A stretch of 64,000 nucleotides of DNA from a candidate division WOR-1 bacterium RIFOXYB2_FULL_37_13 (lineage in GTDB: Bacteria; Margulisbacteria; WOR-1; XYC2-FULL-46-14; XYC2-FULL-37-10): NCBI GenBank assembly GCA_001771535.1, contig MEUB01000007.1, positions 1,386 to 65,385 of the forward strand. The letters are read 5' to 3'. Of this stretch, positions 1 to 10,724 are shown piece after piece. Made by a program: the position numbers and the translations under genes. The notes below the pieces were generated by a model, which saw nothing but the letters and a program-made list of their open reading frames with translations, was not told the DNA's origin and searched no databases. How positions within the stretch are numbered: position 1 is the stretch's first letter; each line of letters opens with the position of its first letter.

Positions 1-722
1 CTCTTTGTTTAAACGAAGATCTGACAGAAGCAATAGCTTTGAGCCATGATTTGGGTCATACGCCATTTGGCCATTCAGGAGAAGAAGCATTAAGTGAAAT
101 TTTAGAGAAGAATTTTGGAATAAAATTTTATCATCATGAACAAAGTTTAAGGATTGTTGAAATCCTCGAAAAAGACGGAAAAGGGCTAAATCTTTGCAAA
201 GAAGTGCTGGAAGGAATAGGAGGCCACGGCAGCGACCAGCCAATGCCCAAAACACTTGAGGGAAAAGTTGTCCGATTATCAGACAGGTTTGCATACTTAC
301 GACATGATATAGAAGACGCTATTGCCGCAAAAATTTTAAATAAAAATGATCTTCCTAAAAAGACCATGAAAATTTTGGGAAGAAACATTTTGGATACGCT
401 GGTATCCGATATCATAGAAAACAGCAAAGACAAGCCAGAAATAAAAATGAGCAAAAAAATTTATAAAGCAATGAATGATTTATATGATTTTATGTATGAA
501 AACGTTTATACAAATCCGGAAGCAAAAAGAGAAGAGAAAAAGATCCCGTATCTTATTCATCAGTTGTTCAGATATTTTCATTATGACAAAAATTTCCAAA
601 AACGCGTCCCAAGAGAAAAGCAACTCCAGCATACTATCGATTTTATAGCAGGCATGACGGATCGTTTTGCAATCAACAAATTCCAGGAGCTTTTTGTACC
701 AAGCGAGTGGAAAAACAACTGA
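1..722 (+). CDS. dgt: dGTPase-like HD-domain triphosphohydrolase, 5'-truncated by window edge
   Basis: Frame is open from nt 3 (..AIALSHDLGHTPFGHSGE..). HD motif HDLGHxPFGH and RLSDRFAYLRHDIEDA are typical of Dgt-family dNTP triphosphohydrolases. Stop TGA at 720-722. Confidence 0.8.
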   Translation, partial: LCLNEDLTEAIALSHDLGHTPFGHSGEEALSEILEKNFGIKFYHHEQSLRIVEILEKDGKGLNLCKEVLEGIGGHGSDQPMPKTLEGKVVRLSDRFAYLRHDIEDAIAAKILNKNDLPKKTMKILGRNILDTLVSDIIENSKDKPEIKMSKKIYKAMNDLYDFMYENVYTNPEAKREEKKIPYLIHQLFRYFHYDKNFQKRVPREKQLQHTIDFIAGMTDRFAINKFQELFVPSEWKNN

Positions 723-2449
723 TGATCCCAAAAGAAAAAATTGATGAGCTACGAGAGAAGCTCGATATTGTGGACGTCATCTCATCGTATGTCCCTTCTT
801 TGCGAAAACGCGGGAAAAACCATATGGGATTATGTCCGTTCCATTCGGAAAAAACACCCTCTTTTACTGTTTCACAAGAAAAAGGGCTCTATCACTGTTT
901 TGGCTGCGGCAAAGGTGGAAACGTTTTCAGCTTCCTTATGGAAATGGAAAACATAAGCTTTGGAGAAGCTTTAAAAATTGCGGCTGACAAAGCGGGGATC
1001 CCAATAGAAGCAGGACAATTCGCAAAAGCACAAAATTCCGCGTCTCAAGCAACAAATAAACTTTTTACCATTATGGAGCTTGCTTGCAAGTTTTATGAAG
1101 GCAGTCTCGATAAGATTAAAGAATATCTTGATGAGCGAAAAATTTCCGATCCAAAATCTTTCAGGCTGGGATTCGCACGGGATGGATGGGACAATCTGCT
1201 TAATTTTCTTTTGGAAAAAGGGGCCAAAATAGAAGATATTGAAGCTGCGGGACTTATCTTAAAAAAGCAGTCAGGCAGCGGTTATTATGACAGATTTCGC
1301 AATCGATTGATGTTTCCCATAATGGACCAGCAAAACAGGGTTATAGGGTTTGGGGGGAGAGCTGTAAACAATGAAGAGCCCAAATATTTAAACTCTCCGG
1401 AATCAGCAATTTTTAATAAGGGAGCTAACCTCTATAATTTAGGCAAGGCAAAAGATTTTATAAAAAGACAAAAATTTGCGCTGCTTGTGGAAGGATACAT
1501 GGATACAATTGCCTGTTGCGAAATAGGCCTAGATAATTCCATTGCTCCATTAGGCACAGCAGTAACTTCAACACAGGCAAAACTGTTGAGCAGGTTTACA
1601 AAAGTTGTTGTATTGGCTTTTGATTCAGATGCGGCGGGGCTTTCTGCCAGCGAAAGAGCACAGGAAATCCTGGAAGAAGCCGGAATAAGCGTCAGGATCG
1701 CATCCTGTCAAGGAGGGAAAGATCCTGATGAGATAATAAAAAAATTGGGAAAAGAAGCTTTCATAAAAAGCGTTCAAACATCAATTCCGGCAACTGAATT
1801 TAAAATAAAAAGGGTTTTGGGCCGATTTAACATAAAAGAAATCGAAGATAAGGTTAAGGCCGCGTATGAAATCGCGCAGTTTTTATCAAAAGAAAAAGAC
1901 AACCTGCTGCAAAGTGAATACGCGAAATTTGCCGCAAAATTATTAAATTTACCGGTGGAAGAAATTACGGCCGCGATTAACAGCCGGAATAATTATCAAA
2001 AAGGAGGTAGTAACTTAAAGAGAGCAATACCAAAAGCTCCCTCAAAAGTCAAAGAAGCCGAAAAAAAAATATTGAAATTGATACTGGAATGGGATGAAGC
2101 TTTGTCTAAAATAAAAGAAGAATTAACTCTTAATGATTTTAATCAATATAAAGGCATTTTCGAACAAATCTGGACAATCAAAAACAATGATATACTGTCA
2201 TCTATTAATAATGAGAGTGACGCGAAAGTTTTAAGAGAGATTGCTTTAAGCGAAGAGCCCTTGAGCAATAAAGATCAGATGCTGAAGGATTGCATAAGCT
2301 CAATTAAAGCTTTCACCATACAAAATGAGATGGGGTTTATTAGGGAATCTCTTTTAATGGCAGAAAAAAATGGCGAAGAAGAAACAGTTAACGAGTTAAA
2401 GAAAAGGCAATTATATTTAAATGAAATTTTAAGAATGTTGATTCGATAG
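707..2449 (+). CDS. dnaG: DNA primase
   Basis: CHC2 zinc finger CPFHSEKTPSFTV..HCFGCGKGGN and TOPRIM motifs LLVEGYMD and LAFDSDAAG. Overlaps the dgt stop. An alternative ATG lies at 722. Confidence 0.95.
   Translation: MEKQLMIPKEKIDELREKLDIVDVISSYVPSLRKRGKNHMGLCPFHSEKTPSFTVSQEKGLYHCFGCGKGGNVFSFLMEMENISFGEALKIAADKAGIPIEAGQFAKAQNSASQATNKLFTIMELACKFYEGSLDKIKEYLDERKISDPKSFRLGFARDGWDNLLNFLLEKGAKIEDIEAAGLILKKQSGSGYYDRFRNRLMFPIMDQQNRVIGFGGRAVNNEEPKYLNSPESAIFNKGANLYNLGKAKDFIKRQKFALLVEGYMDTIACCEIGLDNSIAPLGTAVTSTQAKLLSRFTKVVVLAFDSDAAGLSASERAQEILEEAGISVRIASCQGGKDPDEIIKKLGKEAFIKSVQTSIPATEFKIKRVLGRFNIKEIEDKVKAAYEIAQFLSKEKDNLLQSEYAKFAAKLLNLPVEEITAAINSRNNYQKGGSNLKRAIPKAPSKVKEAEKKILKLILEWDEALSKIKEELTLNDFNQYKGIFEQIWTIKNNDILSSINNESDAKVLREIALSEEPLSNKDQMLKDCISSIKAFTIQNEMGFIRESLLMAEKNGEEETVNELKKRQLYLNEILRMLIR
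2422..2449 (+). promoter_or_regulatory. TGAAAT-N14-TTCGATAG bipartite promoter-like motif upstream of rpoD
   Basis: TGAAAT 2422-2427, 14-nt spacer, TTCGATAG 2442-2449, inside the dnaG 3' end and 19 nt before the rpoD GTG. Same architecture as 7 other copies in the window. Confidence 0.4.
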
Positions 2450-2467
2450 ATATTAAGGAGGCAAAAA

Positions 2468-3514
2468 GTGATAGATAAAAAAACAATAATTGAAAATCTA
2501 AGGTTTGGTAGAAAAAACTATATCACACCTGATGAGTTATTGGCAATCTACCCGGAGCCTGAAAAAAATCTCGATGAAATCGAGCAGCTTCTTTCAAATG
2601 GCTTTAAGATTACCGAACGCAAACCAAGGGCAGAAAAAAAAGTGGACGGAGCCAATGGAAACATAACGGAGATGCAGGGGATTGGCGTGGATGATACCGT
2701 CAGAATGTACCTGCGTGAAATAGGAAGGTTCCCCCTTTTAACCGGTGAAGAAGAAGTATCATTGGCAAAAAAGGTGTTACTCGGCGTCCGCGCCGCAAAG
2801 CACAAACTTGTCAATTCAAACCTGAGGCTTGTTGTTTCAATTGCAAAAAAATATACTGGCCGCGGCATGCTCTTTCTTGATCTTGTCCAGGAAGGGAATC
2901 TTGGATTGATTCGCGCGGTAGAAAAGTTTGATCATAAAAAAGGATATAAATTTTCAACCTATGCGACATGGTGGATAAGGCAGGCAATAACACGCGCTAT
3001 CGCGGATCAGGCTCGCACTATCCGAATTCCCGTGCATATGGTAGAAACAATAAACCGTTTGCGTAAAACCAGCAGGCAGCTGTTGCAAAAACTGGGGCGC
3101 AAACCTACAGAGGGAGAAATAGCAAAATATGCTCGAATGTCCAAAGATAAAGTTAGGGAAGTTATAAAGATTTCACAGGTTCCTCTTTCGCTTGAAATGC
3201 CTGTAGGAGATGAAGAATCTTCAAGGCTTGGAGATTTTGTTGAAGATGTGGGAGTCGCAGGCCCCAACGAAATTGTTATGCAGGGACTTTTGCGTGAAGA
3301 TTTAGAGGAAGTCATGCAAGCGTTGACTGACCGTGAACGTACAGTGCTTAAAATGCGCTTTGGCTTAGGGGATGGACGCCAACGAACTTTAGAAGAAGTG
3401 GGCAAAGCCTTTAATGTTACTCGCGAGAGGATAAGACAGATTGAGTCAAAAGCATTAAAAAAACTTAAACATCCGACACGAGCAAAAAAACTGCGCGAAT
3501 ATCTTCGCGACTAA
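2468..3514 (+). CDS. rpoD: RNA polymerase primary sigma factor (sigma-70 family)
   Basis: Regions 2-4 present: [38 protein letters not shown] and the C-terminal [26 protein letters not shown] start preceded by AAGGAGG. Confidence 0.95.
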
Positions 3515-3552
3515 TATTTGGCTGAAATATATTGACTCCATTTTACGCCCAT

Positions 3553-3580
3553 GTTATAAGTTATAGGTTATCAGTTAAAC
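3553..3580 (+). promoter_or_regulatory. GTTATAAGTTAT..AGTTAAAC leader/promoter motif abutting the tRNA 5' end
   Basis: GTTATAAGTTATAGGTTATCAGTTAAAC ends 1 nt before tRNA position +1. TTGACT (3532-3537)-N17-TATAAG gives a sigma-70-like promoter. The same motif family occurs at tRNA-Val and tRNA-Gly. Confidence 0.5.
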
Positions 3581-3652
3581 GGGCCCTTAGCTCAATGGTG
3601 GAGCGCTCGGCTCATAACCGATTGGTTATAGGTTCGAATCCTATAGGGCCCA
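3581..3652 (+). tRNA. tRNA with CAT anticodon (elongator Met or lysidine-modified Ile2)
   Basis: Cloverleaf folds by hand: acceptor GGGCCCT/AGGGCCC, D arm GCTC..GAGC, anticodon loop CTCATAA, T arm ATAGG-TTCGAAT-CCTAT, discriminator A, no encoded CCA. The anticodon stem lacks the three G-C pairs of an initiator. The 5' half resembles E. coli tRNA-Ile2. Confidence 0.9.
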
Positions 3653-3665
3653 ATAATGCTTCTTT

Positions 3666-3715
3666 AAATATTTTGCCAATTTTCCTTAATTTTCGCCCTT
3701 TAATCTTCGCCTGCG
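3666..3715 (-). repeat. Cassette-junction repeat R1 (remnant ..RRRRLKGEN-stop plus UTR GGCAAAATATTT)
   Basis: Minus-strand CGCAGGCGAAGATTAAAGGGCGAAAATTAAGGAAAATTGGCAAAATATTT matches R2 (4257-4344) and R3 (5371-5444). Confidence 0.85.
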
Positions 3716-4256
3716 AGTGATCTTCATCAAAAGTAAATCTTTTTTGGCGCGCTTCAAAGAGAAAGCCTTTCCCAAGCTCTAAAAGAAAACCTTCGAGCTT
3801 ATCAATAATGGCAGATTCCAATTCGGATTCAGAATATTTTGCTTTTTCATCAAATCCAAGAAATTCCAAAACATATTGTGCAGACAGTGTCTACGCTTTT
3901 TGTGTTTCAGTCAATTTGGCAGATGGCATCTGCCAAATCTGCTCAAAACGGTCTTGATACACCAGATAAAACTTGCGCATATTTCGCAAATTTCGTTCAG
4001 AAAAACCTGTTCCAAATTCAGCCTCCAAGTTAGCCGAAAGATCGATAATAAGCTCTTTCCCATATTGAGCCCTTGCAGAGCCTTTTTGTTCCTGCTCGAC
4101 TATCCTGCGGCCAATTTCAAAACAGGTATAAACTTGTATATAATCCACACTTTTAACAACAGCACTTCTTGCCGATGTAATTAGCTTGCGAATTTCTGTT
4201 ATAAAAGATGTATCTAAAACCTTTGTTTTTTTAACATGTTTAATTTGTTCTTTCAT
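3716..4256 (-). pseudogene. Decayed DUF1016/YhcG-type PDDEXK nuclease gene
   Basis: The 121-aa N-terminal fragment (4256-3891) resembles the YhcG N-domain. A second fragment in another frame (from 3869: EFLGFDEKAKYSESELESAIIDKLEGFLLELGKGFLFEARQ) resembles the start of the PDDEXK core. The central part is missing and the 3' end is cut off at repeat R1. Confidence 0.6.
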
Positions 4257-4344
4257 AAAATATTTTGCCGAGCCTCCTTATTATTCTTGAACCTCAATTC
4301 TCACCCTTTAATCTTCGCCTGCGTTCGTCTAATGTTTCCCCTTC
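4257..4344 (-). repeat. Cassette-junction repeat R2
   Basis: Minus strand reads GAAGGGGAAACATTAGACGAACGCAGGCGAAGATTAAAGGGTGAGAATTGA...GGCAAAATATTTTATG. In the R3 frame it still encodes EGETLDERRRRLKGEN-stop although no gene uses that frame here. Confidence 0.85.
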
Positions 4345-5387
4345 CTCAAAAGCTTCTTAACTTCGAGATCAAAATCAGAAACATAGTTTCTATCTTGCTC
4401 TTTTCTGAATTTATCATATTCTTCAAGTGCCAAGGCTTCGGCAACTTCGTGGCTTACTTTTCCAGAGTCACTCAATATTTGTCGTTCATTAAATTTAAGA
4501 AATGCGTCTAACTTTGAAACCCAGTCTTTCATATACATAACAATTCCGCGCTCTGCCTGTGTTTCCGCAAAATCAAGATACATTGTCACGATTCTGTTTA
4601 AATAATCAAGTTCTTTTTCATTCAAATAGTTTTTGGCAATTACAACATCTGTTTCTCGAATAGCCCCTTTGGGTGAGTTTTTCCAAACAGTAAGCCCCAT
4701 ATTAAGTTTTGTACTATCTACTCTTCCATGAATTATCTCTGCAGCAGTTTTCCCCGTGATTGCAAAGTGGAGCTTGTTTTGTACTGTTGCAAAAAATTGC
4801 TTGGTTATGTCGCTATTTGGAGAGTAATCCGCACTACATTGAGAGTAAATGTCAGTAACTTTCTGGTACATACGCCTTTCGCTTGATCGTATATTTCGTA
4901 TTCGGGCAAGCTGTTCCTCAAAATAATCTTTGCCAAAGATATTGTTAGGATTTTTGAGCCGTTCATCATCCATAGTGAAGCCTTTAATAATATACTCTTT
5001 AAGCCTTTCAGTCGCCCAGATGCGAAACTGTGTTGCTTGTACACTACTTACTCGATAACCAACAGAGAGAATGGCATCAAGATTATAAAACTCAATATCT
5101 CTTGTAACCTGTCTTTCTCCTTCAACTTGAACTTGTGCAATTTTTGCACAAGTTGATTCTTTATGAAGCTCATTCTCATCATAAATATTTTTCAAATGCT
5201 TTGTTACGACACTTCTATCTACGCCAAAAAGATCTGCGATTTTTGCTTGTGTTAGCCAAATATTTTCATCGCGCAAAAATATCTCCACCTTCACATTTCC
5301 ATTTGGGGTGGTATAGAGTAAAAACTCTGTAAAACTATTATTTGGAATAATCCGTTGTTTATTTTTTTTCATAAAATATTTTGCCAA
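4329..5387 (-). CDS. RhuM-family protein (defence-island-associated, DNA-binding N-terminus)
   Basis: N-terminus FLLYTTPNGNVKVEIFLRDENIWLTQAKIADLFGVDRSVVTKHLKNIY is the characteristic RhuM signature. Full-length 352-aa ORF. Confidence 0.75.
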   Translation of the reverse strand: MAKYFMKKNKQRIIPNNSFTEFLLYTTPNGNVKVEIFLRDENIWLTQAKIADLFGVDRSVVTKHLKNIYDENELHKESTCAKIAQVQVEGERQVTRDIEFYNLDAILSVGYRVSSVQATQFRIWATERLKEYIIKGFTMDDERLKNPNNIFGKDYFEEQLARIRNIRSSERRMYQKVTDIYSQCSADYSPNSDITKQFFATVQNKLHFAITGKTAAEIIHGRVDSTKLNMGLTVWKNSPKGAIRETDVVIAKNYLNEKELDYLNRIVTMYLDFAETQAERGIVMYMKDWVSKLDAFLKFNERQILSDSGKVSHEVAEALALEEYDKFRKEQDRNYVSDFDLEVKKLLRKGKH

Positions 5388-5444
5388 TTCTCCTTAATTT
5401 TCGCCCTTTAATCTCCTTCTGCGTTCGTCCAAGGTTTCCCCTTC
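5371..5444 (-). repeat. Cassette-junction repeat R3 (functional 3' end of the T5orf172 gene plus UTR of rhuM)
   Basis: GAAGGGGAAACCTTGGACGAACGCAGAAGGAGATTAAAGGGCGAAAATTAAGGAGAATTGGCAAAATATTTTATG. Confidence 0.85.
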
Positions 5445-5996
5445 ATACATCCAATAATCTGTTCCAGCAACCCCATAGCTGTATCCTAATATTTCCTTTG
5501 CGGACTTCGAAAGACTTGTTATCTCCTCGTTAAAATTAATTGAACGATTATCTACAACCTTTGCCTTTATATTTTCATCTCGGCTAAAAACTAGTTCTGC
5601 GCCAAGCGGAATATCCACCATGCTAAAATCAAATCTTTCACGAATAGTTCTAGCATTATCAAGGGCTTTTTGGTCTTCATGAGATTCCACAATATCGTTT
5701 TTGGGGGTAACATTTTCAATTTCTGCTAATTTTAAAGCTGCCACAATCCGTTCTGGCGCTATTTTAAAAAACTCTCTTTTTGGATTGATTCGATTATTGT
5801 CAAATGCATCGTGTAATTGATGTTCAACAAAACTCATATCTTTCACCGTGCAAGCATAGAAGCAAGTAAATGGGAGCGGAACACTTGTAGAGGCGCTAAG
5901 TTCTCTTATTCTTTGCTCAAGGCTAGTAGAAGTCTTGCCGATTTTTACATAACCAGGCATAGCTTCATTAGTAAGAACATAAACTATTTCACTCAT
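5394..5996 (-). CDS. T5orf172 (MUG113/GIY-YIG-like) domain protein with C-terminal DUF4357-like domain
   Basis: IVYVLTNEAMPGYVKIGKTSTSLEQRIRELSASTSVPLPFTCFYA..REFFKI matches the T5orf172 pattern. The likely ATG at 5996 overlaps the upstream stop (ATGAGTGA). Confidence 0.75.
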   Translation of the reverse strand: MSEIVYVLTNEAMPGYVKIGKTSTSLEQRIRELSASTSVPLPFTCFYACTVKDMSFVEHQLHDAFDNNRINPKREFFKIAPERIVAALKLAEIENVTPKNDIVESHEDQKALDNARTIRERFDFSMVDIPLGAELVFSRDENIKAKVVDNRSINFNEEITSLSKSAKEILGYSYGVAGTDYWMYEGETLDERRRRLKGEN

Positions 5997-6606
5997 TTTG
6001 AGCCTCACCTATTCTTAAAGGTTGAACAATACTTTTTATTTTCATTCCCCCCTCTTGATAATCTCTAGCCCATCGATAATTCAATTCATTATCAAGTCCC
6101 TTGAGGTAAATATAAAACGCCCTAATTTTATCCTTCACTTCCATTAATTTATTATCGTCAATTGACTCCCATAGTCCCTTAGCCTCAGTTAAAAGAATTT
6201 CTCTGTCTCTATGAGCTGATAATTTATTCCTAAGTTTGCGATAGAAAGCCCCTTTCCCAAAATCACTGATTTCACTCAAAAATTCATTAAACTTGACCAA
6301 TATTTGTTTCTGAACTAAACAATCAATATCGGTAGTTTCAATTATAAGGCATTTAAATTCAACAAACTTGTCATACAATGAACACAAGTCCATATAAATA
6401 TATTTTAAGAGTGCCTTTTTTTTATGAATATCTTTTTGAACTCTTGCAATCTCCGCCAAACAAAAAATGTCCTCCCATATTAATTTAATTAATACAAATT
6501 GTTTGGTTAGTGTTTCTTCCGGAAAATATTTATTATCGTTATTGTTACTAAAAGGGTGGAAAATATCATCCCTATTTCTATTATAAAAACATTCTTCCTC
6601 CATCAC
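5989..6606 (-). CDS. All-helical 205-aa protein with HEPN-like Rx5H motif (RNKLSAH)
   Basis: ATG overlaps the R-M stop (ATGA at 6603-6606). The motif YRKLRNKLSAHRD fits the HEPN RNase signature RN(x4)H. No other recognisable domain. Confidence 0.5.
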   Translation of the reverse strand: MMEEECFYNRNRDDIFHPFSNNNDNKYFPEETLTKQFVLIKLIWEDIFCLAEIARVQKDIHKKKALLKYIYMDLCSLYDKFVEFKCLIIETTDIDCLVQKQILVKFNEFLSEISDFGKGAFYRKLRNKLSAHRDREILLTEAKGLWESIDDNKLMEVKDKIRAFYIYLKGLDNELNYRWARDYQEGGMKIKSIVQPLRIGEAQNE

Positions 6607-9479
6607 TTCTCCCCCTCCACCACCCGAATCTCCGCCTCCGTCAGCCCATAGAGCTCATAAACCAGCTCATCGATTTGCTTATCAAGAATTTCTATCTTCT
6701 GCTGATAGTGCCTCTTGTCGGTTTCGGATTTGGCGGAATGATACTTTTTTTGAGTTTCAAGCATTTGATCGACATATTGAATAAGTTTATTTTCAACGGA
6801 TTTATTGACATTGAGCATGCATGGAAATCCATTTAAATCTTTAATTACTATTTTGGGAAATAATCTTCTAGAGCTTTTTATTGCACGATTTTTATAAAAC
6901 ACCGAAAACAATCTTGAGTTCAATTGCGCTAAAAGGATTTTAAGATTGTCATCATTATCATAAAAGTCGAGTATATTGAGAATGCTTTTATTGTTTAATA
7001 GTAATTTGTCGCTATAGCATCCAAGTATACAGCGAGGTGGCTTCCCTGTTATTTCTCTGATTAAAATTCGCTTTCTTGAAAATATATTTAATTTTCTTGG
7101 TTGCGAGAGCCAATTGCCATACCTTAGATATTTGCCATCAAATGATGAATAGTATCTCCCACAATTTTTCCCTTCAATATATGGATAAGTGTTTTTGTCA
7201 TACTTATAATCATAATCATATATTCTATTTTTGACATCTTCTAATGATTGCTTTGGGACACCTTTTCCCTGTTCATAAGCTTGTAAGCCTGTTTTCACAT
7301 CAAAAAACTTTCCAACCATGCCTGATGAATGAATTAGCTTAGACAAAACCTTATCTAAGCTAATATTTTCTGGTATATGAATTTTATATGTATCTGACCC
7401 AGCAAGCCAATCTCTTTGGGAATATTCAACATATTCCTTACTAATAATTTCAAATGGGAAAAAGACTTTTTTGCATTTTGTTTCCCCTTTTGAATTCTTT
7501 GATCTGTCTACTTGAAATATTGTCGTTTCAACCTTCGCGCCATCAAACACTTCATATAATATATCCAACAAGAATTCAAGATTATAATCTGAAAGGATAA
7601 GCTTTCGTAGTAACTGACCCGATTCAATCGTTAACCATGAATTTGGCACAATAAAAGAGAACTTTCCGTCCCTTGACAAAAAGCTCATGGCTCTTTCCAT
7701 AAACATGATAAAGGTATTTGGTTTCTCACGTAAAGTTTTATAAGTTCTTGAAAAATATTGTTTTTCAATATCAGAAAGATGTTCTCTTGATAATACATAC
7801 GGCGGATTCCCAATCACACAATCAAACCCTCCCGCTTTAAATATTTCAGGGAACTCTTTCTGCCAATCAAAAATATTGATCTTCTTCATCTCGTCATTAC
7901 CAAAAAGAGATAGGTTTTTGTCTTTGTAAAAATCAGATCCGATTAGAGAATTTCCGCATTTTACATTGTCAGAGAGTGTTGGAAGAAGTTTGGTATCGCT
8001 AAATTTAAATAGCTTCCCCGCACTTTCATCACTCTCCCCCTCAAGCAATTTGAGCATCAAAGAAAGCTTGGTTACCTCGACAGCCTGCGCGTCTATATCT
8101 ACCCCAAATATATTATTGAGCAAAATATTCTGCTTTTCTTTTATTGTCAGTTTGTAAGAATCCTTTTTGGCAAGATAAATAACTTCGTTTTTAAGAGCTT
8201 TGGATAGATTCTCTTTTTTCGCATAATAAGCCAAATGATAATTAAGCAAATAAGTATATGCGCCAAGCAAAAATGAGCCTGAACCGCACGCGGGATCAAC
8301 TATCTTGAGCTCCTTTATCTCTTTTGGAGTAAGTCCCTTTACTTTTTCGCCAACCGTATTCTTGACAATATAATCAACAATATACTTTGGCGTATAATAA
8401 ACACCGCCAGCCTTGCGCACCTCGGGCTTTTCCTCAATCTTTGCCATATGCGACTCGGTCAAGCGGATAGTCTTGCCAAGAAATTGTTCGTAAATATTGC
8501 CTAGAATTTCTACGGGCAATACGGAAAACGCATAAGGACATTCGGGATAATAAAGCCCTTTTATTATCTTTTCAAAAACATCATCATCAATATTAAGAGA
8601 ATTAATAGCTTCGTTTGGCTTAAAAAGTTCGCTGTTATATTTTTTATTGGCTTTATCAAAATATAAAACCAGATTTTCATACACACGCTTGTCATTGCCA
8701 ATATGTCGGAGATTCTCAAACTGCTCAATCCCTTTTTCTTCGCATATCCTCAAAAAAATTATCCTATCAATAATTTTCTGAACAGCCATATTGATACCAT
8801 AAAGATCGGTCTTCTTATTGTTTTTTGCTATATTTTTCGCCAGCTCGCTTCGCCACTCTTCAATAAGTTTTAAAAAATCTTTGTCTACTTCCGAATATCC
8901 TTTTTTGGTGCCGGAACCGACATAGTTGTTTATGCTCCCTTTTTTTATGGCATCTTTAGAAAACAGTCCATATAAAAAATCCCAATTCTTTTCATATTCT
9001 TCATATGTGCAATAAAAAAGCCTGGCAACAGAAGCTTTGTCATTTTTCCCTGGTTTTATTCTTGTGTCATAAATAGCAAACTCTTGGAAGTCAGTTAAAA
9101 TTGATATTTTTCTTTTCGCGGTATAGCCATAACGCCTTACCTGATATGCGGGGTCAATAGACTCTTTAAGGAAAATAGAAGGCTTTTTGGTTTCAACAAA
9201 AAAGACAGGCTCATTGCCTATTCTAAAAGTGTAGTCTGGATAATTTTGTGTTCCTGATATCTCAAGGTTGTCCTCAATTATGACATCGCGAAACTCTTCA
9301 ATAACCCCTTCTTTATTGCTTATATCCCAATCAAAAAGCTCAAAGAATTGATCAACAAAGTCCATCCTCAATCGTGTTTCTTTATAATTCTTTTCAGTAT
9401 ATTGAGAAAGATTGCCGTAAAATTTATCTACAAGCTTGCGCAGTTTTTCCAGTCTCTCTGATTTATTAATTGCTGTCAT
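6603..9479 (-). CDS. Type IIG restriction-modification enzyme (Eco57I/MmeI-like single chain: PD-ExK nuclease, N6-adenine MTase, TRD)
   Basis: N-terminal PDYTFRIGNEPVFFVETKKP (D..ExK). SAM motif I VDPACGSGSFLL and motif IV VIGNPPYV. C-terminal specificity region ends ELYGLTEAEIRVVE, typical of this family. Confidence 0.9.
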   Translation of the reverse strand: MTAINKSERLEKLRKLVDKFYGNLSQYTEKNYKETRLRMDFVDQFFELFDWDISNKEGVIEEFRDVIIEDNLEISGTQNYPDYTFRIGNEPVFFVETKKPSIFLKESIDPAYQVRRYGYTAKRKISILTDFQEFAIYDTRIKPGKNDKASVARLFYCTYEEYEKNWDFLYGLFSKDAIKKGSINNYVGSGTKKGYSEVDKDFLKLIEEWRSELAKNIAKNNKKTDLYGINMAVQKIIDRIIFLRICEEKGIEQFENLRHIGNDKRVYENLVLYFDKANKKYNSELFKPNEAINSLNIDDDVFEKIIKGLYYPECPYAFSVLPVEILGNIYEQFLGKTIRLTESHMAKIEEKPEVRKAGGVYYTPKYIVDYIVKNTVGEKVKGLTPKEIKELKIVDPACGSGSFLLGAYTYLLNYHLAYYAKKENLSKALKNEVIYLAKKDSYKLTIKEKQNILLNNIFGVDIDAQAVEVTKLSLMLKLLEGESDESAGKLFKFSDTKLLPTLSDNVKCGNSLIGSDFYKDKNLSLFGNDEMKKINIFDWQKEFPEIFKAGGFDCVIGNPPYVLSREHLSDIEKQYFSRTYKTLREKPNTFIMFMERAMSFLSRDGKFSFIVPNSWLTIESGQLLRKLILSDYNLEFLLDILYEVFDGAKVETTIFQVDRSKNSKGETKCKKVFFPFEIISKEYVEYSQRDWLAGSDTYKIHIPENISLDKVLSKLIHSSGMVGKFFDVKTGLQAYEQGKGVPKQSLEDVKNRIYDYDYKYDKNTYPYIEGKNCGRYYSSFDGKYLRYGNWLSQPRKLNIFSRKRILIREITGKPPRCILGCYSDKLLLNNKSILNILDFYDNDDNLKILLAQLNSRLFSVFYKNRAIKSSRRLFPKIVIKDLNGFPCMLNVNKSVENKLIQYVDQMLETQKKYHSAKSETDKRHYQQKIEILDKQIDELVYELYGLTEAEIRVVEGEK

Positions 9480-9665
9480 TATGTAGTATTATACGCTTTT
9501 AGCTTATATCGAGATAGTACAAAACACGGCACGCGTTAGAAATTTTTGTGCTCAATTCATCAGGGGTGTCCTAAGTCAGGAAATATGTAACCCTAAAATG
9601 TGGAATTCATCTTTTTGTAGGCATTCCTGTAGTTTTGAAAGTAAAAAAGCGTTTAAGCGTAGATG

Positions 9666-9890
9666 CTATACCGGCTGTGGTTCCGTGAGTAAATTCTTTT
9701 TTTCAATCAATTCTTTTCGTCGTTCAATAATTTTTTTGGTGACATTATTTTCAGGAATTTCATATACAACAATAGAATCTTTGTTGTACAGATTCATCGA
9801 TTTACATTTTGGACACTTAATTTCTACGTTGCTCCCCTCTCCAACCTTTGCCAATAACCTATTGCAAAAGCTGCACCTAAATTCTTTCAT
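9666..9890 (-). CDS. com: Com-family zinc-finger protein (phage Mu Com-like)
   Basis: MKEFRCSFCNRLLAKVGEGSNVEIKCPKCKSMN parallels Mu Com (RCxxCNKLL..EIxCPxCK). RBS AGGAGAGGTGA upstream. Same strand as the R-M gene and immediately upstream of it. Confidence 0.7.
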   Translation of the reverse strand: MKEFRCSFCNRLLAKVGEGSNVEIKCPKCKSMNLYNKDSIVVYEIPENNVTKKIIERRKELIEKKNLLTEPQPV

Positions 9891-10011
9891 AAAACCTTAT
9901 CACCTCTCCTAAAAATATAAATACTCAATAACTTTCACCCTATCAATACAACAGGATACCACAAAATAAAGCGCCTGTCCATGTATTTTTTACTGCTCTT
10001 TTGCTGTTTTT

Positions 10012-10039
10012 TTATCGTGCATATTTATATGAAATTTCA
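10012..10039 (-). promoter_or_regulatory. TGAAAT-N14-CACGATAA bipartite promoter-like motif upstream of the com/R-M operon
   Basis: Minus strand reads TGAAATTTCATATAAATATGCACGATAA, 122 nt upstream of the com ATG. Confidence 0.4.
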
Positions 10040-10106: not shown

Positions 10107-10724
10107 TTAAGACTTTCTGATGACAACAAGAGATCTTGTAATCCCACCAACTGAAACTTTTTTTATTCCCTTTAATGTGGCATTAAATTTCTCCATCTGC
10201 AACTTGGCTTCCTTGAGCTCTTGTTCTACTACATCTTGTTTTTGAGCAATAAAAAAACCACCCTGTCTCAAAAAAGGAAGAGTGTAACCTAAAAGTTTTG
10301 ATAATTTTGCAACTGCTCTCGCTAATACAACATCAAAATGCTCTTTGTAGCCTGTTTTTTTTACAAGCTCTTCAGCTCTTCCCCAAACAGCGGTAACATT
10401 TTCAAGTTTTAGAATTTTTATAACATGATTCAAAAAATCTACTTTCTTGCGGGTAGAATCGATCAGAGTAAGTTTAATGTCAGGCCTTACTATTTTAAGA
10501 GGAATTCCAGGAAATCCCGCGCCAGTCCCCACATCAACAACATTTTGAGCCTTCAAATCAATAGCTTCTAAAATAGACAGAGAATCTTCAAAATGGCGGA
10601 TTCTTATCTCTTTTGGCTCTTTGACCGCCGTCAAATTAAACTTTTCGTTCCATGAAATTAATTCTTCAAGATACCTATCAAATTTTTCTTTCTCATTGGA
10701 TATTGGACATTGGACGTTGGACAT
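10107..10724 (-). CDS. rsmG: 16S rRNA (guanine527-N7)-methyltransferase
   Basis: WNEKFNLTAV and the SAM motif VVDVGTGAGFPGIPLKI are typical of RsmG/GidB. The first 10 codons are the TGTCCAA-type heptamer repeat. Confidence 0.9.
   Translation of the reverse strand: MSNVQCPISNEKEKFDRYLEELISWNEKFNLTAVKEPKEIRIRHFEDSLSILEAIDLKAQNVVDVGTGAGFPGIPLKIVRPDIKLTLIDSTRKKVDFLNHVIKILKLENVTAVWGRAEELVKKTGYKEHFDVVLARAVAKLSKLLGYTLPFLRQGGFFIAQKQDVVEQELKEAKLQMEKFNATLKGIKKVSVGGITRSLVVIRKS
10693..10724 (-). repeat. Imperfect heptamer tandem repeat (TGTCCAA-like x4) encoding MSNVQCPISN
   Basis: ATGTCCAACGTCCAATGTCCAATATCCAATG. The same 32-mer with 2 mismatches lies inside argC at 27296-27326. Confidence 0.9.

Follow-up and report, generated by a model that had tools for sequence, protein, structure and literature searches.

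The window analyzed here is a 64,000-nucleotide (nt) stretch of contig MEUB01000007.1 from the candidate division WOR-1 bacterium RIFOXYB2_FULL_37_13. On its minus strand, a gene for a Type IIG restriction-modification (R-M) enzyme is followed by a small gene for a predicted HEPN ribonuclease (RNase) and by a T5orf172 gene, and is preceded by a Com-type zinc-ribbon gene. An initial annotation of this sequence proposed that the four genes form a tightly coupled operon and a hard-wired composite defense system. Our results point to a different organization. The region is probably a defense island in which the Type IIG enzyme serves as an anchor for accessory defense candidates, each a single gene that is independently mobile and interchangeable, and not a dedicated four-gene system.

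Outside this genome, the four genes do not travel together. We saw the full arrangement in no genome other than copies of this one (the same locus is present on 21 contigs from groundwater-type metagenomes), and the supposed partners were not found together in any other locus that we sampled. The HEPN family was represented by 10 other loci (L001, L003, L005, and L017-L023), obtained in part from a genome-collection scan with a 12-sequence subset, which come from Patescibacteria, Gallionellaceae, Methanobacteria, and one cyanobacterium. T5orf172, RhuM, Com, and an adjacent Type IIG gene were absent from all 10. Where neighbors were scanned (L017-L022), they were mostly housekeeping genes, including those for ClpB, the amidase GatA, topoisomerase I, RelA/SpoT, and SecA; a Mrr-type nuclease lay near the HEPN gene in one locus of the family. 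Close homologs of the T5orf172 protein (79-90% identity) occupy three independent and unrelated contexts, all without the HEPN gene: beside KilA-N and near dnaE, within a SIR2-HerA/Type III island, and on an integrative element that has serine recombinases and a methyltransferase island. For the R-M enzyme, we sampled 84 homolog loci, comprising the four closest (L031-L034, 56-62% identity) and 80 from a metagenome scan, and found the HEPN family, T5orf172, and Com in none of them. Scans of viral contigs returned three distant relatives of T5orf172 and no relatives of the HEPN protein. The initial annotation had held that homologs in unrelated contexts would speak against a composite system, and unrelated contexts are what we observed, with no recurrent linkage of the HEPN family to R-M or T5orf172 genes. 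A toxin-antitoxin-like pairing of HEPN and T5orf172 was also rejected because in all other loci each gene was present without its supposed partner.

The recurring feature of this R-M clade is a variable accessory slot, not a fixed set of partners. Among the four closest homolog loci, no two have the same gene overlapping the R-M stop codon. Specifically, the slot holds a 243-amino-acid (aa) DUF4145-like protein in L031 (a weak match, with an RNRFLH motif), a 148-aa protein in L032 that appears REP-transposase-like on reading its sequence and has no Pfam match, a Shedu SduA_C nuclease in L033, and a small protein in L034 that appears to be membrane-spanning, again by sequence reading. When open reading frames (ORFs) of at least 100 aa were counted, a same-strand ORF started between -50 and +40 nt from the R-M stop in 25 of the 65 loci with downstream room. 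The occupants include a DUF4145/MtlR HEPN (L063), a tetratricopeptide repeat (TPR) protein with HEPN_LA2681 (3e-73; L091), ApeA_NTD1 with HEPN_Apea (L096), RhuM (L090), Fic-like_C (L079), PDC-S32 (L060), PDC-S11 (L075), DUF2321, and a weak Schlafen-like match. In L076, a TIR gene starts at +56 nt. HEPN proteins from different families fill the slot repeatedly, and the HEPN gene of the window would be this genome's occupant of the position behind the R-M stop.

The 204-aa protein in that position is probably an AbiU2-like HEPN and is predicted to be an active RNase. Its ORF (204 or 205 aa, depending on the start codon) contains YRKLRNKLSAHRD at 6205-6243, a stretch that includes the predicted RNase motif R125-N-K-L-S-A-H131 (6211-6231). 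The HEPN signature is described as Rx4-6H in which a polar residue (N, D, or H) follows the arginine (Anantharaman 2013, PMC3710099); here, R125 is followed by N, and both R125 and H131 are invariant in the family. Across 48 relatives sharing approximately 20% identity, the only invariant positions are P28, D45, R125, and H131, and the motif common to the 48 members reads [IV]RN[KR][IL][GSA]AHR. The profile PF18734 (HEPN_AbiU2) is matched at E<0.01 by 19 of the 48, with a best E-value of 2.9e-7, and the weak match of the window protein to this profile spans the R..H region. Like AbiU2 (PF18734; Lactococcus AbiU), the family combines an R-N-x-x-x-A-H motif with an all-helical chain of about 200 aa, and the profile matches of those 19 relatives are weak to moderate. 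The window protein differs from AbiU2 in scoring below threshold, in belonging to a small divergent clade, and in carrying a P..P segment that is conserved at the N terminus as well as a small beta element at the C terminus. Neither PADLOC nor NCBIfam gave a match to it, and none of the PADLOC models covers its AbiU2-like clade. The family as a whole is small, with 7 close relatives and 72 clusters (at 50% identity) among 1.8 billion representatives.

Structure prediction is compatible with this assignment. An AF2 model built from the 48-sequence alignment is a helical bundle (pLDDT 86, pTM 0.82; an earlier model from 7 sequences reached pLDDT 68) with helices at residues 31-55, 59-89, 119-128, and 138-168 and an insert helix at 95-111. 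As modeled, R125 lies near the end of helix 119-128 and H131 in the loop that follows, and the helix topology fits that of the HEPN superfamily. The HEPN toxins 8yuf, 8xdj, 2hsb, and 8xeh were among the weak Foldseek matches (E 0.3-1, target TM approximately 0.5-0.6), where they appeared beside designed helical bundles. A Foldseek search against BFVD gave no significant match for the model, and the family profile found nothing relevant among PDB sequences. Helical bundles match many designed proteins equally, so the HEPN call rests on sequence conservation and topology; the fold search is consistent with it and is not significant. Upstream of the nearest HEPN homologs, in the Patescibacteria loci L001, L003, and L017, we noted proteins of about 520 aa that share 46-65% identity across only about 100 aa and are separated from the HEPN gene by gaps of 13 to 178 nt. 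The protein in L001 has a beta-helix domain, and its counterparts in L003 and L017 have no Pfam match. Such partial similarity may reflect synteny or a functional partnership.

The anchor of the island is a 958-aa protein that matches the PADLOC model REase_MTase_IIG (E 5e-182) along with the Pfam families Eco57I (7e-43), N6_Mtase (1e-19), MmeI_Mtase (9e-15), TaqI_C (1e-13), and, weakly, HSDR_N (4e-5). It contains an N-terminal PD..ExK nuclease (PDY at 9231-9239, FVETKKP at 9180-9200), a gamma-class N6-methyladenine (m6A) methyltransferase with motif I VDPACGSGSFLL at 8265-8300 and motif IV (NPPY) as GNPPYV at 7794-7811, and a TaqI_C-type target-recognition domain with LYGLTEAEI at 6627-6653. 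The presence of nuclease, methyltransferase, and target-recognition domain in a single, intact-looking chain strongly supports its prediction as a Type IIG enzyme. The architecture is the same as that of the Eco57I/MmeI-type Type IIG enzymes (PD-ExK, gamma-class m6A methyltransferase with NPPY, C-terminal target-recognition domain), with no architectural differences. There are more than 8000 homologs, the nearest at 56-62% identity. The R-M ATG is preceded by a TATAAT box whose end lies 9 nt away (9480-9500, minus strand), and a Shine-Dalgarno sequence is not visible; this combination suggests that the R-M transcript has a very short leader or none and starts independently of com.

The layout of the island and its boundaries is as follows.

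10107-10724: rsmG, the other flank of the island
9666-9890, minus strand: Com-type zinc-ribbon gene, 74 aa, PF10122 Zn_ribbon_Com
9480-9665, minus strand: Com/R-M spacer with a TATAAT box and without stable RNA structure
6603-9479, minus strand: Type IIG R-M gene, 958 aa, PADLOC REase_MTase_IIG
5989-6603 (ATG start) or 5989-6606 (GTG start), minus strand: AbiU2-like HEPN gene, 204 or 205 aa
5394-5996, minus strand: T5orf172 (GIY-YIG-related) gene, 200 aa, PF10544, PADLOC PDC-S57
5364-5444, minus strand: junction repeat R1, at the T5orf172/RhuM boundary
4329-5372 (ATG start) or 4329-5387 (TTG start), minus strand: RhuM-family gene, 347 or 352 aa, PDC-S05
4248-4344, minus strand: junction repeat R2, at the RhuM/DUF1016 boundary
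3612-4256, minus strand: decayed DUF1016/YhcG PD-(D/E)xK gene, with an N-domain ORF at 3891-4256 and a C-domain fragment at 3612-3869, PDC-S02
3656-3736, minus strand: junction repeat R3, at the DUF1016/tRNA-Met boundary
3581-3652, plus strand: tRNA-Met (CAT), detected by ARAGORN, island boundary
3494-3509, both strands: bidirectional terminator-like hairpin, common to the island and rpoD

Much of the initial description of this region holds. All four ORFs were located on the minus strand where first described, with domain E-values and lengths far beyond chance expectation. The identities of the Com-like gene (PF10122, E 6e-9) and the Type IIG enzyme (all of the quoted motifs were located) agree with our own, as do the identity of T5orf172 and the 8-nt overlap of its ATG with the HEPN stop (ATGAGTGA, 5989-5996). 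The HEPN start does overlap the R-M stop, and it was the proposed ATGA at that junction that needed correction, as bases 6606-6603 read GTGA. With the junction reading GTGATG, the overlap is 4 nt for a GTG start and 1 nt for an ATG start, the latter being the one picked by gene callers. Similarly, three of the four genes are tightly packed as described; Com stands apart, 186 nt upstream, and the run of minus-strand genes, which spans rsmG to tRNA-Met, goes past the four genes into RhuM and a DUF1016 remnant. The gap from T5orf172 to RhuM is 6-21 nt, and an AAGGAG Shine-Dalgarno sequence precedes RhuM. Between 9479 and 3509, terminator-like sites on the minus strand occur only within the R-M ORF, and the hairpin at 3494-3509 is the sole non-coding one downstream of the island. 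Because no non-coding minus-strand terminator-like site comes before that hairpin, the genes from R-M to DUF1016 could share one transcript, and the R-M gene and the genes that trail it are probably co-transcribed.

The genes downstream of HEPN bear signs of mobility and decay. The nuclease-like T5orf172 protein matches PF10544 (3e-17) and, from residues 2 to 197, positions 5-207 of the 212-position PDC-S57 profile (2.6e-73). Among 2677 homologous clusters (E<=1e-10), the best 120, drawn from Margulisiibacteriota and several lineages of Patescibacteria, show 75-90% identity; such conservation across lineages implies either recent and wide horizontal spread or very strong constraint. RhuM matches PF13310 (1e-112) and PDC-S05 (2.8e-149). 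The DUF1016/YhcG gene (PF17761, 8e-26; PDC-S02, 1e-33) is a dead pseudogene: a break separates the N domain from the C domain, the nuclease domain stops at about position 59 of a 157-position profile, and PF06250 is matched (4e-11) over positions 10-59 only. The ORF of the YhcG fragment runs into tRNA-Met, which is encoded on the opposite strand. The island also has three diverged copies of a junction element of roughly 75 nt, in which the final 17 codons of T5orf172 (EGETLDERRRRLKGEN*) lead into a Shine-Dalgarno sequence and then ATGAAA. In R1, these codons are the genuine 3' end of the T5orf172 gene, and ATGAAA is the RhuM start; R2 re-encodes EGETLDERRRRLKGEN* through synonymous changes, followed by a Shine-Dalgarno sequence and the ATGAAA of DUF1016; R3 cuts the YhcG fragment short and lies directly against the tRNA-Met 3' end. 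The element was not seen again in the rest of the window or in approximately 110 fetched loci. Taken together, the three repeats suggest serial recombination of cassettes at a site resembling the 3' end of T5orf172.

Two settings of T5orf172 homologs in other genomes deserve mention. In L026, a dense island at 436-6451 contains an N6_N4 methyltransferase, SIR2_2 with a HerA-like ATPase, ResIII/RE_endonuc, and DUF2726, and the T5orf172 homolog lies at its end, flanked by unannotated ORFs of 176 and 188 aa. The dnaE-uvrA interval of related genomes (L024/L025 versus L032) is another variable hotspot. One version carries a 90%-identical T5orf172 with KilA-N, and the other carries a 60%-identical R-M ortholog, a putative REP-transposase-like gene (by sequence reading), a TPR gene, KilA-N, and Bro-N.

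Com is peripheral to the island and not a conserved partner of the R-M gene. Its ORF has CxxC motifs at residues 6 and 26 and shares 40-50% identity with phage Com translational regulators across the N-terminal 33-57 aa. In phage Mu, com and mom overlap, and an mRNA hairpin occludes the downstream start codon. The window resembles the Mu arrangement in that a small CxxC...CxxC zinc-ribbon protein is encoded upstream of a DNA-modification gene. It differs in having, between two genes that do not overlap, a 186-nt unstructured spacer and a likely separate promoter. RNA folding of the spacer gave a z-score of +1.68, with 195 of 200 shuffles folding as well or better, and no Com-like ORF was found in the 84 R-M homolog loci, even at E<=10. 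A Mu-like role for Com as a translational activator of the R-M gene was rejected on the basis of this unstructured spacer and the absence of Com from 84/84 homolog loci. Phage Com homologs themselves occupy varied contexts.

How might such an island work? In the organization that we favor, the Type IIG enzyme would be the first line of defense, cleaving unmethylated foreign DNA and methylating its own site. The AbiU2-like HEPN protein, a predicted metal-independent RNase using Arg125 and His131, or another effector in its place would act second and halt translation if restriction fails. HEPN, and perhaps T5orf172 and RhuM, would then be autonomous second-line or abortive-infection modules encoded in the same transcription unit. 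Layered defense, in which an RNase backs up the R-M enzyme, had been proposed in the initial annotation. The idea is upheld at the level of the superfamily, where other HEPN families occupy the slot behind R-M orthologs.

Some of our results weigh against this interpretation. The samples of genomic context are small (10 HEPN loci and 3 T5orf172 loci), and ORF calling was crude in the 80 metagenome loci. The match of the window protein to PF18734 (17 bits, E 0.004) falls below the 26.8-bit gathering threshold, and two Foldseek searches of the HEPN models against the PDB returned nothing at E<=0.001, so that the HEPN call stands on its sequence side, with invariant R and H and the AbiU2 matches of its relatives, and gained no significant HEPN match from structure. 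Overlaps between stop and start codons are frequent in compact genomes and alone are no sign of functional coupling. Finally, our data show the gene identities, the junctions, the conserved R and H, the absence of co-occurrence elsewhere, and the variability of the slot, and from these we infer that the genes are co-transcribed, that the HEPN protein is an RNase, and that the layers may be ordered or depend on one another.

A more intimate relationship between the R-M enzyme and the HEPN protein is conceivable. The Type IIG enzyme could bind and silence the HEPN RNase until a phage anti-restriction factor frees it and triggers abortive infection, as in PrrC, with translational coupling holding the two proteins at a fixed ratio. 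This logic has been proposed for all R-M-linked HEPNs (Anantharaman, PMC3710099). It is consistent with the overlap of the HEPN start and the R-M stop, with a Shine-Dalgarno sequence (GGTGGAGG) within the R-M 3' end, and with at least four other HEPN families at the same position behind R-M orthologs. The window also resembles PrrC-EcoprrI, in which an anticodon nuclease is encoded in a Type Ic R-M operon, in that a HEPN-type RNase gene is linked to R-M and a sequence of restriction first, RNase as back-up is plausible (PMC3710099). Yet a single-chain Type IIG enzyme stands here in place of HsdMSR, and the HEPN gene trails the R-M gene instead of being embedded in an operon. The HEPN protein is a stand-alone 204-aa chain without the regulatory ABC-ATPase domain of PrrC. 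Furthermore, its relatives also live without R-M, alone among housekeeping genes in other genomes, which indicates that the protein is tolerated without an R-M partner. The slot also accepts genes that are neither HEPNs nor toxins, such as the REP-transposase-like gene of L032 (assigned by sequence reading, with no Pfam match). On balance, we regard a guarded HEPN RNase as doubtful.

The 3' end of the R-M gene invites a broader version of the same idea. The conserved C terminus of the enzyme (..LTEEEI.VVEG) often encodes GGTGGAGG just before the downstream start (6606-6625 in the window; also in L031, L032, L034, and others), and a Shine-Dalgarno-like string occurs within the last 35 nt of the R-M gene in 34 of 76 homolog loci. 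GGTGGAGG could be a built-in ribosome-binding site for the next gene, and one may speculate that it has been selected for coupling. In an extension that we think unlikely, the R-M clade would be a docking platform whose 3' end drives translation of any effector recombined behind it, with the enzyme guarding the effector until restriction is disabled. If so, the PrrC principle would extend to swappable effectors of single-chain R-M enzymes, and the AbiU2-like family would be one such effector.

Two further explanations were weighed. Under the composite system first proposed, Com would control translation of the R-M gene, and HEPN and T5orf172 would be obligate effector partners. The shared strand, the overlapping junctions of three of the genes, and the defense-type domains of all four are what such a system would look like. 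However, the arrangement is restricted to copies of one genome, without co-occurrence in the 10 HEPN, 3 T5orf172, and 84 R-M loci, and Com is missing from the R-M homolog loci and lies 186 nt away across a spacer with no structured leader. We therefore consider this arrangement highly improbable. Alternatively, T5orf172 could be a mobile homing-type nuclease gene and HEPN an addiction toxin, both serving the upkeep or spread of the island and not defense against phages. This would account for the 75-90% identity of T5orf172 among the best 120 clusters from distant phyla, its presence at different loci in related genomes, the three diverged copies of its 3' end that mark cassette boundaries, and its distant relatives in phages. 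Nevertheless, PDC-S57 is defined by its embedding in defense systems, and the contexts of T5orf172 found here include defense islands. Moreover, the viral contig collection gave only the three T5orf172 relatives and none of HEPN, and no target-site or intein/intron-like features were seen. Selfish passengers thus strike us as a rather improbable explanation, and a Type IIG anchor with interchangeable accessory genes remains the interpretation that we prefer.

The concept of an R-M system with embedded accessory defense has already been published. AbiU2 is listed among the HEPN families in R-M operons (Anantharaman 2013, PMC3710099, Table 1), at least 16 HEPN clades are linked to R-M systems, and a PrrC-style multi-pronged defense has been proposed, including R-M with HEPN and RhuM as a multi-level defense (PMC3710099). 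Payne 2024 (bioRxiv 10.1101/2024.01.29.577857) defined the PDC families on the basis of genes that are embedded within Type I R-M, BREX, and DISARM systems. In that study, the HEPN candidate HEC-08 required its motif histidine for defense, and we found no test of PDC-S57, PDC-S05, or PDC-S02 there. The T5orf172, RhuM, and DUF1016 genes of the window match these three PADLOC families strongly and adjoin an R-M gene; they differ in trailing a Type IIG enzyme. What is mildly new is the Type IIG anchor together with an AbiU2-like clade outside the coverage of PADLOC.

[quoted passage not shown] It also indicates that a small AbiU2-like HEPN family escapes current defense-finding models. If the R-M enzyme does not regulate the effectors in its slot, the region would be an ordinary defense island, and the overlaps between stop and start codons would not be evidence of a system. 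If it does, the clade would offer a natural series for testing how restriction is coupled to abortive infection.

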